This document shows, one piece after another, positions 48 to 11,597 of a stretch of 12,758 bases of DNA. The position numbers and the translations under genes are program-made. The stretch is from a virus (Duplodnaviria > Heunggongvirae > Uroviricota > Caudoviricetes), in the IMG/VR virus record IMGVR_UViG_2636415500_000004; one strand, given 5' to 3'. The notes beneath the pieces are model-generated. The model was not told the origin of the DNA, did not search any database, and saw nothing but the letters and a program-made list of their open reading frames with translations. Within the stretch, counting starts at the first letter, position 1, and every line of letters starts with the position of its first letter.

Positions 48-254
48 CTTCATTTTCACTTTTTTAAATCCAACGACAGACGGCTGGCATTTAAGTATTG
101 TGAAATATTATCAAATGTAATCATCATTGATTTACAAAAGATACATTTTGCCCCGAAAGGATTCATGTCAGAAACATCAAAAGATGATGTTCTATACTGG
201 GAACCATGACAACACGGGCATCTAAAGTGAATATGGTTTGTAATATTGTCTACC

Positions 255-467
255 TCAAAGCGCCACTACATGAACAGCGGCAGGACCTTTAGGTCCGTTC
301 TCAATACCAAATTCAACTTCCTGATTCTCAGTTAATGTTTTGAAATCGTTGCTCTGAATTGCTGAGAAATGGACAAACACATCTTTGCTGCCATCTTTCG
401 GCGTGATGAAACCAAAACCTTTTTCAGGGTTAAACCATTTCACTAAACCAGTCATTTTGTTAGACAT
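255..467 (-). CDS. cspI: Cold-shock protein, CspA family (70 aa)
   Basis: ORF translation [21 protein letters not shown]...[10 protein letters not shown] carries the cold-shock domain RNP motifs (KGFGFI, VFVHF). RBS AAGG 7-8 nt upstream as in cspA-type genes. Assigned cspI by neighbourhood. Confidence 0.93.
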
Positions 468-630
468 AATTATTACCTTTTGAAGAAATTAGCCCTTGGG
501 CAGAATGGTCCGAAAAAAAATATCAGAGAGAAAAACCAACAAGGAAATCTCAAGAGGTACAAATAATAAAATTATAACAATGACTGCTTCAGATAAATTT
601 GTAACAAACCAGAACACCATTAACGCATGA
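468..630 (-). promoter_or_regulatory. cspI promoter and long 5' leader (about 145 nt)
   Basis: Minus strand carries GCGTTAATG (candidate -10 at 619-624), the same motif found upstream of cspB and resembling the cspA promoter region; AT-rich UP-like tract further upstream. Long leaders are typical of cold-inducible csp genes. Confidence 0.5.
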
Positions 631-2857: not shown

Positions 2858-3138
2858 GAGATTGTGGTGCTTTTTGTGGGAGTCATCCACTTACGCACTT
2901 TGTTTTGCCATGCCAGCAGTTAGCTTCTGCTGTAAAACTATTCATGCAGCAAACCTGCACTTCACCACAATGGTTAGCATACTTTTCCTGATTAAGATTT
3001 TGCCAAATATGCTAGCCATTGTTTCATGTATTGGACCTCCTTACTTTTTATTAAAGAGATCCAATATTCACTACTCTGTCCGTATCTCTACTCAGGCATC
3101 AGCCTTCTTCGTTATCGTATACAGACGAGCGATGAATT

Positions 3139-3354
3139 TTAATCAGTAATGATGACATTTGCTGCTGCAGGACCTTTAGCACCACTCTCTATAGAGAAGG
3201 TAACCTTTTGACCTTCAAATAAGGTTCGATAATTATCATTCTGAATCGCAGAAAAATGCACAAACACATCTTTACTACCATCAACAGGAGAAATAAAGCC
3301 GAAACCTTTATCAGCGTTAAACCATTTTACTAAACCAGTCATTTTATTTGACAT
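3139..3354 (-). CDS. cspB: Cold-shock protein, CspA family (71 aa)
   Basis: [38 protein letters not shown]... with cold-shock domain motifs. Long upstream leader. Divergent from cspF. Confidence 0.93.
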
Positions 3355-3560
3355 TCTACATTCCTTAACTTGAGCCTTTCGGCATAAATGGTTTGCATAA
3401 CAGAAACGACTTCGTACTTAATTGGAGAGACTCAAAGAAGGAATAAGTGAATAACACCTGAAATGAGAACTGCTTTAGTAAACTACTTCGTATATCGTCT
3501 GTTCTTCAAACCGACGCAATCATTAACGCATAGTTGAACATATGAAGCAATGTTTATTTT
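3355..3560 (-). promoter_or_regulatory. cspB promoter and long 5' leader (about 160 nt)
   Basis: Minus strand has GCGTTAATG (candidate -10 at 3522-3527) followed by GGTTTGAAGAACAGACG, resembling the cspA cold-box region GGTTTGACGTACAGA. Confidence 0.55.
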
Positions 3561-4288: not shown

Positions 4289-5041
4289 TTATCTCGTCAC
4301 CTTCCTCAATTGCGCTTCCGCGTATGCTTCTTCCTGCCAGCACTTTGTTACCAGTTTACCAATGACGTCCGCATACCCCTTATACCACTGATAATCGGTC
4401 AGGTCTGGTACCAGCTTCTGGACATGACGTCGTGCCAGCGTGGTCGGTAAACGACTAAACCGGTTTCCATTACAACGCCCACAAATCTTATATACCGGTA
4501 CGCCATGAAACCGGGTTCTTTTTTCATCCAGAACAATCCCTTTACCCTTACACCCTCTGCACGCTGTGCTGGCTTCGCCCTTACCATGGCAATGCTGACA
4601 TAGTTCCTTCACCCATTCTTCCTTGATTACAGATTCCCCGCGTCTGTAGTGTTTCACCACTTCGCGCAATACATTATAAAATCCCGTACCTGAACAATGC
4701 TCACAGCGAGCCTTACTTGCCGCAGACCTGGAGTAATCAGCAAAGGCAAAACTCACGAGGTAAGGAATAATCTGTAACCGGATTTCTTCACTCAATTTGT
4801 TCAATGTCGGGTTATCCAGTGCCATCGCGTAATTTAGCAGGCCTTCAATCGCAAACTGAGGGTCCTGAACACCAACTTTTGCCAGAAATAAGGCCAACCC
4901 AAGTGGTGCTTTCGACTGCACCATCCCCTGCGCTGCCATTACATCCGTAATTGTTAAACAACCGGTGCCTGTCGCTGGAGCGTCATCGCTCAATTTTGGA
5001 GATTTTGGGGAGTAATATTTTGGTAAGGCTTCAAGGTTCAT
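4289..5041 (-). CDS. quuQ: Putative late-gene antiterminator Q-like protein (250 aa) with four CxxCxGxG zinc-finger repeats
   Basis: Start at ATG 5041 (MNLEALPK...) with RBS GGAG 7 nt upstream; the track start at 5071 would overlap ydfU. Motifs CEHCSGTG, CQHCHGKG, CRGCKGKG, CGRCNGN. Position upstream of the late promoter and lysis genes. Confidence 0.85.
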   Translation of the reverse strand: MNLEALPKYYSPKSPKLSDDAPATGTGCLTITDVMAAQGMVQSKAPLGLALFLAKVGVQDPQFAIEGLLNYAMALDNPTLNKLSEEIRLQIIPYLVSFAFADYSRSAASKARCEHCSGTGFYNVLREVVKHYRRGESVIKEEWVKELCQHCHGKGEASTACRGCKGKGIVLDEKRTRFHGVPVYKICGRCNGNRFSRLPTTLARRHVQKLVPDLTDYQWYKGYADVIGKLVTKCWQEEAYAEAQLRKVTR

Positions 5042-9733: not shown

Positions 9734-10141
9734 ATGGAAACAAAAAATTTAACTATCGGCGAACGCATCAGGTATCGTCGGAAAAACCTCAAACACACCC
9801 AAAGGTCTCTTGCTAAAGCCCTGAAAATCTCCCATGTGTCTGTATCACAATGGGAACGGGGTGATAGTGAACCTACAGGGAAGAACCTTTTTGCCCTCAG
9901 TAAAGTATTGCAATGCTCACCAACATGGATTCTATTTGGCGATGAAGACAAGCAACCAACACCACCTGTTGAGAAGCCAGTTGCCTTATCCCCCAAAGAA
10001 CTAGAGCTCCTTGAGCTGTTTAATGCACTGCCAGAATCAGAACAGGATACCCAGCTCGCCGAAATGCGAGCTCGAGTAAAAAACTTCAATAAACTCTTTG
10101 AAGAATTACTAAAAGCCCGTCAGCGGACAAATAAAAGATAA
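9734..10141 (+). CDS. dicA: Repressor DicA, XRE-family HTH, P22 c2-like (135 aa)
   Basis: METKNLTIGERIRYRRKNLKHTQRSLAKALKISHVSVSQWERG... classic XRE HTH. Confidence 0.95.
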   Translation: METKNLTIGERIRYRRKNLKHTQRSLAKALKISHVSVSQWERGDSEPTGKNLFALSKVLQCSPTWILFGDEDKQPTPPVEKPVALSPKELELLELFNALPESEQDTQLAEMRARVKNFNKLFEELLKARQRTNKR

Positions 10142-10622: not shown

Positions 10623-10841
10623 ATGCAGAAACGAGAACCCGTCATCATCGCGCCAGACTATACCGATGATGAACTTTATGAGTGGATGCGCCAGAAAATT
10701 AATGCAGCGCAGGATCTGAAATGGGCTAATGAAGCCAGGGCTAAGCAGGCTGAAAATCTGTCCGCTCTGGAGCAGGATATCACCAATCTGGAAAAAGCAG
10801 CGGCATTAAGCATTGCCAGAATGATTACATACCCGCGTTAG
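10623..10841 (+). CDS. ydfC: YdfC (72 aa), function unknown
   Basis: MQKREPVIIAPDYTDDELYEWMRQKINAAQ...; RBS GAGGAA 6 nt upstream. Confidence 0.85.
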   Translation: MQKREPVIIAPDYTDDELYEWMRQKINAAQDLKWANEARAKQAENLSALEQDITNLEKAAALSIARMITYPR

Positions 10842-11181
10842 TAGCTAATCAACAAAGCTAAGGTTAGTAATTAAGGAGTTCTCCACGGGTGAGGTGGAGT
10901 GCGTGCGCCGGACACGGGTGCGCATCCGGAACTGACAGTTTACTGAAAGGATATTTCCCTGAAAAGTCAGACCATAACGCGAAAGCGCATGGCGAGGTAG
11001 CTGGTTCATAGATAGCCTGTCGTTAAATTTTCGTCGACCGTGCGCTTCCGGTTGTGGCAACCCGCGAAATGGCGCGGCGGTAAGTATGGCGGGGTTATTC
11101 CTTCCCCGTTGAGGACACCGGGTTGTCAGGTTGACCATACGCTTAAGTGACAACCCCGCTGCAACGCCCTCTGTTATCAAT

Positions 11182-11239
11182 TTTCTGGTGACGTTTGGCG
11201 GTATCAGTTTTACTCCGTGACTGCTCTGCCGCCCTTTTT
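11182..11239 (+). ncRNA. dicF: DicF small regulatory RNA (Hfq-dependent; represses ftsZ and other targets)
   Basis: Sequence UUUCUGGUGACGUUUGGCGGUAUCAGUUUUACUCCGUGACUGCUCUGCCGCCCUUUUU matches DicF as I recall it. Ends in its own terminator hairpin (GGCGG...CCGCC + U5). Lies inside the dicB operon between ydfC and dicB. Confidence 0.85.
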
Positions 11240-11243
11240 AAAG

Positions 11244-11391
11244 TGAATTTTGTGATGTGGTGAATGCGGCTGAGCGCACGCGGAACAGTTAAAACCAAAA
11301 ACAGTGTTATGGGTGGATTCTCTGTATCCGGCGTTAATTGTTAACTGGTTAACGTCACCTGGAGGCACCAGGCACTGCATCACAAAATTCA
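11244..11391 (+). repeat. Perfect 14-bp inverted repeat pair (TGAATTTTGTGATG / CATCACAAAATTCA) forming a long-range stem between dicF and dicB
   Basis: Arms at 11244-11257 and 11378-11391 enclose about 120 nt. The first arm lies about 62-75 nt after the DicF 5' end, consistent with the reported RNase III-dependent longer DicF form. Confidence 0.6.
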
Positions 11392-11408: not shown

Positions 11409-11597
11409 ATGAAAACGTTATTACCAAACGTTAATACGTCTGAAGGTTGTTTTGAAATTGGTGTCACTATCAGTAACCCAGTATTTACTGAAGATGCCAT
11501 TAACAAGAGAAAACAAGAACGGGAGCTATTAAATAAAATATGCATTGTTTCAATGCTGGCTCGTTTACGTCTGATGCCAAAAGGATGTGCACAATGA
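11409..11597 (+). CDS. dicB: Cell-division inhibitor DicB (62 aa)
   Basis: MKTLLPNVNTSEGCFEIGVTISNPVFTEDAINKRKQERELLNKICIVSMLARLRLMPKGCAQ; RBS GAGGA 7 nt upstream. The longer track ORF from 11304 is rejected. Confidence 0.92.
   Translation: MKTLLPNVNTSEGCFEIGVTISNPVFTEDAINKRKQERELLNKICIVSMLARLRLMPKGCAQ

Follow-up and report, generated by a model that had tools for sequence, protein, structure and literature searches.

The put sites of phage HK022 suppress termination in cis, without phage proteins, via the zinc-binding domain of the beta-prime subunit of RNA polymerase. In the Bacillales, the eps-associated RNA (EAR) is an intra-operon processive antitermination RNA that promotes readthrough of downstream terminators. 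Here we describe a structured leader RNA of phage early operons; from sequence comparisons its structure is well supported, and its function is a proposal. It is located in the dicB operon of the Escherichia coli Qin prophage, within a window of 12,758 nucleotides (the whole stretch of DNA that was analysed), in the untranslated interval between ydfC and the DicF sRNA. The predicted RNA domain, referred to below as the core, is formed by the helices P0 to P3 and a pseudoknot; the phage that shares its name with one of these helices is always written as phage P1. The features of the locus are:

9734-10141, dicA
after dicA, with the ydfC ORF ending at 10841, ydfA, ydfB and ydfC
10842-11050, plus strand, upstream module, a mosaic unit of its own that Rac-type and Stx-type phages carry in the absence of the core
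11051-11165, plus strand, core domain of about 115 nt (P0, P1, P2, P3 and pseudoknot)
11166-11182, plus strand, spacer from the core to the reported RNase E-made 5' end of DicF, varying in length and sequence between lineages
11183-11234, plus strand, DicF sRNA (Rfam RF00039, 76.7 bits), past the end of the interval but part of one functional unit with the core
11409-11597, dicB

Like HK022 put, the core is predicted to be a folded nascent RNA encoded in an early operon of a lambdoid phage that lacks N, with a repressor-controlled promoter upstream and terminators ahead, and it carries conserved unpaired nucleotides, as expected for the binding of a host machine (PMC9378689). This put-like setting was found in cdtI, Ayreon, Tritos, Erwinia and Izhakiella, on the P_L side only. 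The two elements differ in architecture, put being about 70 nt long with two stems and a triple helix whereas the core measures about 115 nt and combines four helices with a loop pseudoknot. They also differ in arrangement: put is present in both early operons of HK022 but the core occurs in a single copy per phage, and, unlike put, the core always adjoins a terminator, antitermination by the core being a proposal. Homology to put was rejected, since the putL and putR sequences taken from NC_002166, which agree with the cryo-EM numbering (PMC9378689), gave no BLAST match and the covariance model built for the core (R1) had no match at either site.

The other systems share single traits with the core. 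EAR is likewise structured, about 100-120 nt in size and situated between genes of an operon (ydfC and dicB in Qin), but it belongs to another phylum and has another fold, and the regulatory role of the core is only proposed. The lambda N/nut system resembles the core in its position at the head of the P_L operon and in the requirement that terminators be passed ahead of the recombination and int-xis genes; in contrast, the N gene is absent from the core-bearing phages cdtI, Ayreon and Tritos. A search for boxA yielded matches at chance level and none in the interval, and the loop AAAUGG of hairpin P1 does not appear to be a GNRA-like pentaloop of the boxB type. A lambda-type nut site was rejected because the interval holds no boxA and the core-bearing phages lack N. 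Terminating riboswitches, like the core, have a conserved closed junction with a pseudoknot, after which come a variable spacer and then an intrinsic terminator, and the placement of a structured conserved element directly before an intrinsic terminator, as in riboswitches and attenuators, was seen in 105/105 copies of the core. Unlike riboswitches, the core shows no conserved competition between antiterminator and terminator; the competition between P0 and an upstream helix, Pu, leaves the terminator out, and no ligand is indicated.

Searches with Rfam 15 at gathering and permissive (E<=10) thresholds placed no family in the interval 10842-11181, EAR, C4, riboswitches and ribozymes included, and there was no Rfam match at the core in phage P1, cdtI, P7, pPE4 and HannyBb. 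The DicF model RF00039 covers 11183-11234 only and had no match within 10842-11181 even at E<=10. DicF and the core are linked in most copies, but the core also occurs without DicF and DicF-like RNAs without the core, and no DicF was found at the Rfam level beside the cores of phages P1 and P7. The genome record of phage P1 labels a 'dicF-like' region of 102 bp (68791-68892) that overlaps the 3' half of the core and the terminator. Similarity in sequence around the core has thus been noticed before, and Faubladier and Bouché (1994) probably noted sequence conservation around dicF. Descriptions of the fold were not found, nor were its modularity and linkage to a terminator described in Rfam or in accessible papers, a full-text search with the invariant blocks included.

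Composition of the ydfC-DicF interval

A preliminary description of this DNA had set the interval apart as a GC-rich, highly structured untranslated spacer of 340 nt. Its boundaries are right, with the ydfC ORF stopping at 10841 and the Rfam match to DicF beginning at 11183. The GC content of the interval is 52.6% (58.3% in the core and 50.2% in the upstream part), as compared to 48.2% and 42.0% in the 500-nt flanks on the left and right, respectively, and 45.0% in the window; the interval is thus richer in GC than its neighbours, but the rise is modest and 'much more GC-rich' was an overstatement. The fold-energy z-scores were -2.35 for the plus strand and -2.28 for the minus strand of the whole interval, and -0.90 and -1.04 for the parts 11046-11170 and 10842-11045, respectively, so that the label 'highly structured' gets no backing from the energies. 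The folding energy of the interval is unexceptional, and any special character must show in its evolution.

The interval contains no credible ORF, in agreement with the preliminary description. The 111-aa ORF on the minus strand had no match in PHROG, and an ORF of 36 aa on the plus strand (11040-11150) matched only phrog_8854, a family whose function is not known. Homologues differ by indels of +1, +4 and +5 nt over the latter ORF, and therefore no reading frame is conserved over the core. The family phrog_8854 is probably spurious, a product of ORF calls made over an RNA. A protein-coding gene was rejected on account of the frame-breaking indels and the lack of a family of known function.

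Both BLAST and alignments indicate that the interval is a mosaic of two modules with differing distributions, not a single structured leader of 340 nt as had been proposed. In BLAST searches against phage genomes the matches broke near query positions 210-215. The segment at 21-215 (window 10862-11056) was shared with Qin-like phages and some Stx and Rac-type phages, and the segment at 210-332 (about 11051-11173) came out as a separate conserved core that was also found in cdtI, Stx2c phages, Ayreon and 2H10, and with 77-82% identity in phages P1 and P7. An alignment with phiSTEC1589, Tritos, HannyBb and Rac-SA53 broke at the same module boundary. The upstream two-thirds of the interval is a separate module, outside the core domain, and the duplicated GTGCGC sits within it.

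The sole clearly conserved feature of the upstream module, as judged by covariation, is a long-range helix of 20 bp, Pu, which was predicted both by RNAalifold and by single-sequence minimum free energy (MFE) folding:

10973-10994, plus strand, 5' strand of Pu (CAUAACGCGAAAGCGCAUGGCG)
11035-11056, plus strand, 3' strand of Pu (CGACCGUGCGCUUCCGGUUGUG), the last 6 nt of which double as the 5' strand of P0

Four of the 20 pairs showed compensatory changes in the RNAalifold analysis of six sequences. Since Pu and P0 both use GUUGUG, they are mutually exclusive, and in Qin they are nearly isoenergetic, with an MFE of -75.2 kcal/mol for the fold with the upstream (Pu) pairing and -72.2 kcal/mol when P0 was enforced. 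The resemblance of aacgcgaaagcgcatggcgagg to cccgcgaaatggcgcggcgg hinted at a degenerate second core in 10842-11050, but the covariance model finds none there and this candidate was rejected. The same repeat appears to mediate recombinant junctions in the loci L016, L063 and L144.

The predicted core domain and its distribution

Comparative analysis identifies 11051-11165 on the plus strand as a discrete, conserved and pseudoknotted RNA domain, built from the following elements:

11051-11058 with 11158-11165, plus strand, closing helix P0 (GUUGUGGC with GCUGCAAC)
11062-11077 (11062-66 with 11073-77), plus strand, hairpin P1 (CCGCG-AAAUGG-CGCGG)
11084-11089 with 11135-11140, plus strand, pseudoknot (GUAUGG with CCAUAC), the 3' strand lying inside the P3 loop
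11090-11108 (11090-94 with 11104-08), plus strand, variable hairpin P2 (CGGGG-UUAUUCCUU-CCCCG)
11120-11156 (11120-28 with 11148-56), plus strand, hairpin P3 (GGGUUGUCA ... UGACAACCC) with an invariant 19-nt loop

The single-stranded blocks GGCGCGGCGGUAAG, CAGGUUGA and GCYURAG were invariant from Escherichia to Erwinia and also in phages P1 and P7. The covariance model R1 scored 125 bits at the core, which was its sole match in the window, and 88-126 bits on 36 diverse homologues. In the model-based alignment of these 36 sequences 92.7% of the cells were paired, as compared to 42-56% in slid controls, and 9/19 nested pairs showed compensatory changes; none of 500 shuffles attained any of the five measures. 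Folding of single sequences independently yielded P0, P1, P2 and P3, and G-U pairs in P0, P2 and P3 are compatible with an RNA read from the plus strand alone.

The support is distributed unevenly among the helices. P0 was paired in 93.7% of the cells among 69 sequences and was also predicted by single-sequence MFE folding; its tail occurs in the variants GCUGCAAC, GCUACAAC, GCCACAAC and ACCACAAC, with complementarity kept in all of them, and a C-G pair is replaced by U-A in the cdtI group. P1 was paired in 95.6% of the cells, with wobble changes only (C-G to U-G) and no double changes. P3 displayed compensatory changes in 6/9 pairs and was paired in 95.4% of the cells, the Izhakiella strands GGGUAACCA and UGGUUACCC being an example of its double changes. 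The position of P2 formed a hairpin in 16 of the 19 folded lineages (the P2 segment of pPE4, L063 and Serratia has a different MFE fold) with at least nine different stem sequences, among them CGGGG/CCCCG, CUGGG/CCCAG, CUGGGGU/GCUCCAG, CAGGUG/CACCUG, CCCGGG/CCCGGG and CAGGG/CCCUG. The P2 loop is pyrimidine-rich, and 3/5 of the P2 pairs had compensatory changes in the model-based alignment. One further candidate closing helix, GGCG with CGCC or CGCU, was paired in 88%, with an invariant 5' side and mismatches in the cdtI group.

From the alignments, the pseudoknot is strongly conserved but its covariation is thin. It was paired in 99-100%, with a single variable pair (U-A, C-G or U-G) that is never mismatched among the 69 sequences, and takes the form GCAUGG/CCAUGC in phage P1; because the search patterns fixed most of the pseudoknot positions, the covariation support is partly circular. 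Scans of IMG/VR that forced changes at the two central positions of the pseudoknot recovered only three sequences, of which one carried a G-U wobble and the others were uncompensated singletons. Another candidate pseudoknot, joining the P2 loop to the GAGGA linker, is compatible with Qin and L039, but was rejected since on inspection it fails in phage P1, Erwinia and Trabulsiella.

Only part of the base pairing named in the preliminary description agrees with this structure. That pairing is conserved across homologues holds in so far as compensatory changes were found in the core and in Pu, and CGCG-aaatgg-CGCG corresponds to the conserved helix P1, although without compensatory change. The pairing of GCGGGGTT with AACCCCGC was lost in the comparison, the GGGG being used locally in P2 and the AACCC pairing with GGGUU in P3. 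The local hairpin GGTTG-TGG-CAACC was also poorly kept, with 15-21 of the 69 sequences unpaired at two positions; its bases belong instead to the long-range helices P0 and Pu.

Homologues were collected from IMG/VR (120 loci), from species-representative genomes and from plasmids (511 records). The core region was present in 4,431 of 5,426 complete E. coli genomes (~80%), with a median of two and up to eight copies, and no RefSeq annotation was found at the core in these genomes. Most copies of the core are near-identical E. coli sequences. The 511 core-bearing plasmids are apparently P1-like phage-plasmids, about 90-100 kb in size, non-mobilizable and with identities at the level of phages P1 and P7. 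In the species-representative genomes, the core was found in Escherichia, Shigella, Citrobacter, Serratia symbiotica, Trabulsiella, Erwinia tracheiphila and Izhakiella.

A DicF-like hairpin from which the core is precisely absent was seen in phiSTEC1589, the Shigella phage POCJ13, Rac-SA53 and vB_EcoS-666R9. At such loci the strands of P0 make a plain hairpin, GUUGU-GAAUA-ACAAC, and by this comparison the core behaves like an optional domain inserted into the loop of P0. The first two of these phages encode N, and Rac-SA53 and vB_EcoS-666R9 have no annotated N. The idea that the core replaces N was rejected as a rule, being borne out only in part: it holds in several phages but fails for the Rac-type phages, which have neither.

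Operon setting and the adjacent terminator

As seen from its genome contexts, the core moves as a module among the repressor-controlled early operons of temperate phages. In N-less lambdoid phages and prophages from several enterobacterial genera it occupies the operon on the P_L side, and in phages P1 and P7 the C1-controlled Pban leader; it is always co-directional with the early operon and within a long untranslated stretch. In phage P1, it begins about 35 nt past the start site of Pban and is followed by the terminator GCCCAUC-UUCG-GGUGGGC-U6, tRNA genes, tciABC and ban. In Ayreon and cdtI, which lack the N gene, the order is cI, P_L (TTGACA-17-TAATGT) and then the core about 285 nt downstream. 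The intact Qin-like phage Tritos has the order CI, ydfABC, core, DicF, dicB, ydfD, exoVIII, xis and int. Erwinia and Izhakiella carry cII and Cro on one strand and a CI-type repressor, core, terminator and DUF2303. In Qin, about 900 nt separate the promoter from the core, and no plus-strand terminator was predicted between dicA and the core.

An intrinsic terminator, defined as a hairpin with a U-tract within 130 nt, followed the core in 105/105 unique copies that had enough flanking sequence, as compared to 34/208 random positions on the same strand. The terminator hairpin lay 3-66 nt past the end of P3 (median 40 nt). Of the 105 terminators, about 90 were of the DicF type (GGCGG) and 11 were of the unrelated type found in phage P1; in the Qin window, the terminator is the DicF hairpin with its U-tract. 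The core and the terminator were independent of each other in the MFE folds. No pairing of the core or its tail with the terminator was found to be conserved across lineages, and it was absent in L055, cdtI and Erwinia; an attenuator pairing of the core tail with the terminator was rejected for this lack of conservation.

DicF is formed in two ways, when transcription ends at the DicF terminator and when RNase III processes readthrough RNA, and its 5' end is an RNase E cut (PMC9438474, PMC5069750). Because both termination and processed readthrough are described in this literature, partial readthrough at the DicF terminator is real.

Candidate functions of the core RNA

By analogy with HK022 put and the Bacillus EAR, we propose that the core acts in cis to set the level of readthrough at the adjacent terminator and at later ones, a reading to which we assign a probability of roughly 0.4. 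The folded core would set the ratio at which RNA polymerase stops or continues at the DicF terminator; stopping would give a short RNA ending with DicF, and reading on would reach dicB and the later genes of the operon, such as exoVIII, xis and int in the intact relatives and the tRNA genes and ban in phage P1. Like put and EAR, the nascent core would have the elongation complex or a host factor as its direct target. Such direct action is likelier than a classical attenuator since no hairpin that competes with the terminator is conserved and since the core has invariant unpaired nucleotides. In Qin, Pu could modulate the folding of the core as a rival of P0 for GUUGUG. More tentatively, and with odds that are clearly against it, the core may belong to a structurally new class of nascent RNAs that regulate the elongation complex, either a put-like antiterminator or a switch that senses a factor or ligand, with a fold unrelated to that of put.

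Several observations weigh against control of readthrough in cis. The tight linkage to a terminator fits an RNA gene bounded by a terminator, or an attenuator, equally well, and a processive antiterminator need not adjoin a terminator. Rac-type phages have a DicF-like terminator but lack the core and an annotated N, so that the core is not required for readthrough in these close relatives. The correlation by which N is present where the core is absent comprises few phages, and the single core per phage contrasts with the presence of put in both early operons of HK022. Finally, the domain is thermodynamically unexceptional (z -0.90) and the covariation of its pseudoknot is thin.

The preliminary description had suggested, as an alternative, a second non-coding RNA, which is possible. 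A stable non-coding RNA that is freed from the early transcript and acts in trans is in our judgement unlikely. Its ends would be the Pban start and the adjoining terminator in phage P1, where promoter, core and terminator constitute a self-contained unit of about 160 nt, and the RNase E cut at the 5' end of DicF in Qin; the lambdoid contexts, however, provide no 5' end of its own, and a discrete RNA species is not documented in PMC9438474 or PMC5069750. The presence of a terminator right after the core in all 105 copies suits an RNA gene, and the core is optional and modular, as are accessory phage sRNAs. The invariant unpaired blocks suggest a conserved partner, which could be a host protein or host RNAs contacted through the invariant loops or the pyrimidine-rich P2 loop. 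The CU-rich sequence of this loop (UCCUU or CUCC) is similar to motifs that bind Shine-Dalgarno sequences by base pairing, but the motif differs in cdtI, Citrobacter and Serratia.

It seems improbable that the core is a sensing leader of the riboswitch or attenuator type, in which the choice between P0 and alternative pairings would decide on termination and a ligand or factor would favour P0. The alternatives in such a model are the pairing of GUUGUG with the upstream CAUAAC strand of Pu and that of the CACAAC tail with GUUG-like sequences downstream. The domain does look like an aptamer, with a closed multi-helix junction, a pseudoknot, invariant junction nucleotides and a variable 'expression platform' that ends in a terminator, and P0 and Pu, which cannot form together, differ little in energy in Qin. 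A downstream GUUGUG or UGUUG could pair with the tail in Izhakiella and in the pPE4/L126 type, and in phage P1 the tail sequence CCGAAG is the complement of CUUCGG in the terminator. Complementary stretches as short as 5-6 nt are, however, expected by chance, and pairing of the core or tail with the terminator was not conserved, being missing from L055, cdtI and Erwinia. The independence of core and terminator in the MFE folds also speaks against a sensing leader, and the gene content downstream points to no ligand.

A role in the processing or stability of the DicF precursor, either guiding RNase E or protecting the precursor, was the main suggestion of the preliminary description and is similarly improbable. 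The RNase E-made 5' end of DicF lies just 17 nt past the core (PMC5069750, PMC9438474) and about 90 of the 105 unique copies stand before a hairpin of the DicF type (GGCGG), both of which would suit such a role. On the other hand, phages P1 and P7 retain the core before an unrelated terminator and without a DicF that Rfam recognizes, DicF-like RNAs occur without the core in Rac-SA53, 666R9, phiSTEC1589 and POCJ13, and the spacer between the core and DicF is variable in sequence and in length (3-66 nt), which together make a function specific to DicF unlikely.

A mosaic spacer with no active role, or a signal that works as DNA, with the structure as a by-product of GC content and shared ancestry, would fit the unremarkable z-scores of the fold, the near-identity of most copies, which are from E. 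coli, and the dispensability of the core in some phages, but is very improbable given that 9/19 pairs are compensatory and the slid controls collapse, that the stem sequence of P2 is wholly replaced while the hairpin stays, that the G-U pairs are strand-specific and that the loops are invariant across genera amid unrelated surrounding sequence. The view of the preliminary description that this is not a passive spacer is thus borne out for the 3' third of the interval, where compensatory changes and strand-specific G-U pairs point to a folded, conserved RNA.

DicF, Qin and phage P1 have been studied heavily, yet the core, which lies beside DicF, has no Rfam family or annotation. Should it act in trans, phages would encode a new structured RNA that has a host partner. 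If instead the proposed control of readthrough is true, the core would be only the second structural class of protein-free phage RNA that reprograms the host RNA polymerase, and it could help explain how early terminators are passed in N-less lambdoid phages and in the ban operon of phage P1. It would also provide a handle on the production of DicF and DicB, and thereby on the inhibition of cell division, effects on phage receptors and the regulation of virulence in EHEC. A new class of regulator would then be present in phage P1 and in most lambdoid prophages of E. coli, where it would bear on the decision between DicF and the rest of the operon.

Gene calls and repeats around the core

In several phage records, gene callers have annotated hypothetical proteins across the core, the conserved pseudoknotted RNA domain. 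These calls (L-numbers denote homologous loci with core-type regions) are likely to be false genes, since indels between homologues break the frame.

Gene calls over the core
Window 11040-11150, + strand: ORF matched by PHROG family phrog_8854
L008 2463-2648: hypothetical protein
L002 (phage cdtI) 3045-3500, - strand: hypothetical protein

A short internal repeat is formed by window positions 10975-11003 (aacgcgaaagcgcatggcgagg) and 11060-11089 (cccgcgaaatggcgcggcgg), and to judge from the sequences of loci L016, L063 and L144 it appears to mediate deletions. Some prophages, among them the Shigella flexneri copy, whose DicF has decayed, have CAUAAC fused straight to the P1 helix of the core and have lost the 3' strand of the long-range helix Pu along with the 5' strand of the core helix P0. 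There are three copies of the motif GUGCGC and two of its complement GCGCAY, among positions 10898-10930, 10985-10990, 11039-11045 and 11274-11280 of the window, one of the GCGCAY copies lying directly 3' of DicF (GAGCGCACGCGG), so that several alternative long-range pairings are possible. One of these would enclose both the core and DicF, and the pairings may have a bearing on the RNase III cleavage that has been reported 3' of DicF.

Terminators in related loci

The DicF-like terminator hairpin is far longer in Erwinia, Izhakiella, Trabulsiella and Serratia. Its loop in these loci contains AGGAG, a spacer of 7-9 nt and an AUG, from which an ORF continues across the hairpin's 3' half and the U-tract, an arrangement that suggests a possible coupling of translation to termination in these loci. 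In the cdtI-type loci, a second sequence conserved across genera (GAGCAUCACCGGGCGACGGGCUCAUAACCCAAUCCACCCGGGCG) is located 3' of the terminator, between the two strands of a stem some 14 bp long (ACAAAACAGAGAAG ... CUUCUCUGUUUUGU). This element, absent from the window, may be an additional structured RNA of the same leader.

Terminator-associated features
L154 about 4665-4740; also L155, L152, L139: long DicF-like terminator hairpin
L157 (phage Ayreon) 4175-4265; also L002, L149, L154, L155: conserved post-terminator sequence

In phage vB_Apl-pPE4 (L007, about 2595-2760), the unit of tail and DicF-like terminator (CCGCCACAACAACCCATGTTGATTACC...CCCGCCCTTTTTAAAGTGAATTTTGTGAT) is tandemly duplicated and preceded by only one core. 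Apart from its label as an 'Actinobacillus' phage, it resembles a lambdoid phage of E. coli in its genes (dicA, ydaT, kil, exoVIII), and the host may therefore have been misassigned.

Other structured RNAs

The untranslated interval between DicF and dicB holds a sub-threshold match to the Rfam family STnc100 (window 11246-11386, + strand; 34.1 bits, where the gathering score is 47; E 1.3e-5). STnc100 has been tied to prophage PasD sRNAs (2026 preprint), and this spacer may therefore contain a third RNA module. Two cspA-type leaders, presumably belonging to the Qin cold-shock gene paralogues, are ordinary features that are already known.

Structured RNAs and their scores
Window 3123-3515, - strand: cspA-type thermoregulator leader (158.8 bits)
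Window 228-613, - strand: cspA-type thermoregulator leader (112.8 bits)
L002 540-728, - strand: C4 antisense RNA (68.4 bits) adjoining isrK (60 bits)

The C4-isrK pair is located on the P_R side of the core-bearing cdtI immunity region, and such phages thus hold several structured RNAs near their repressor genes.
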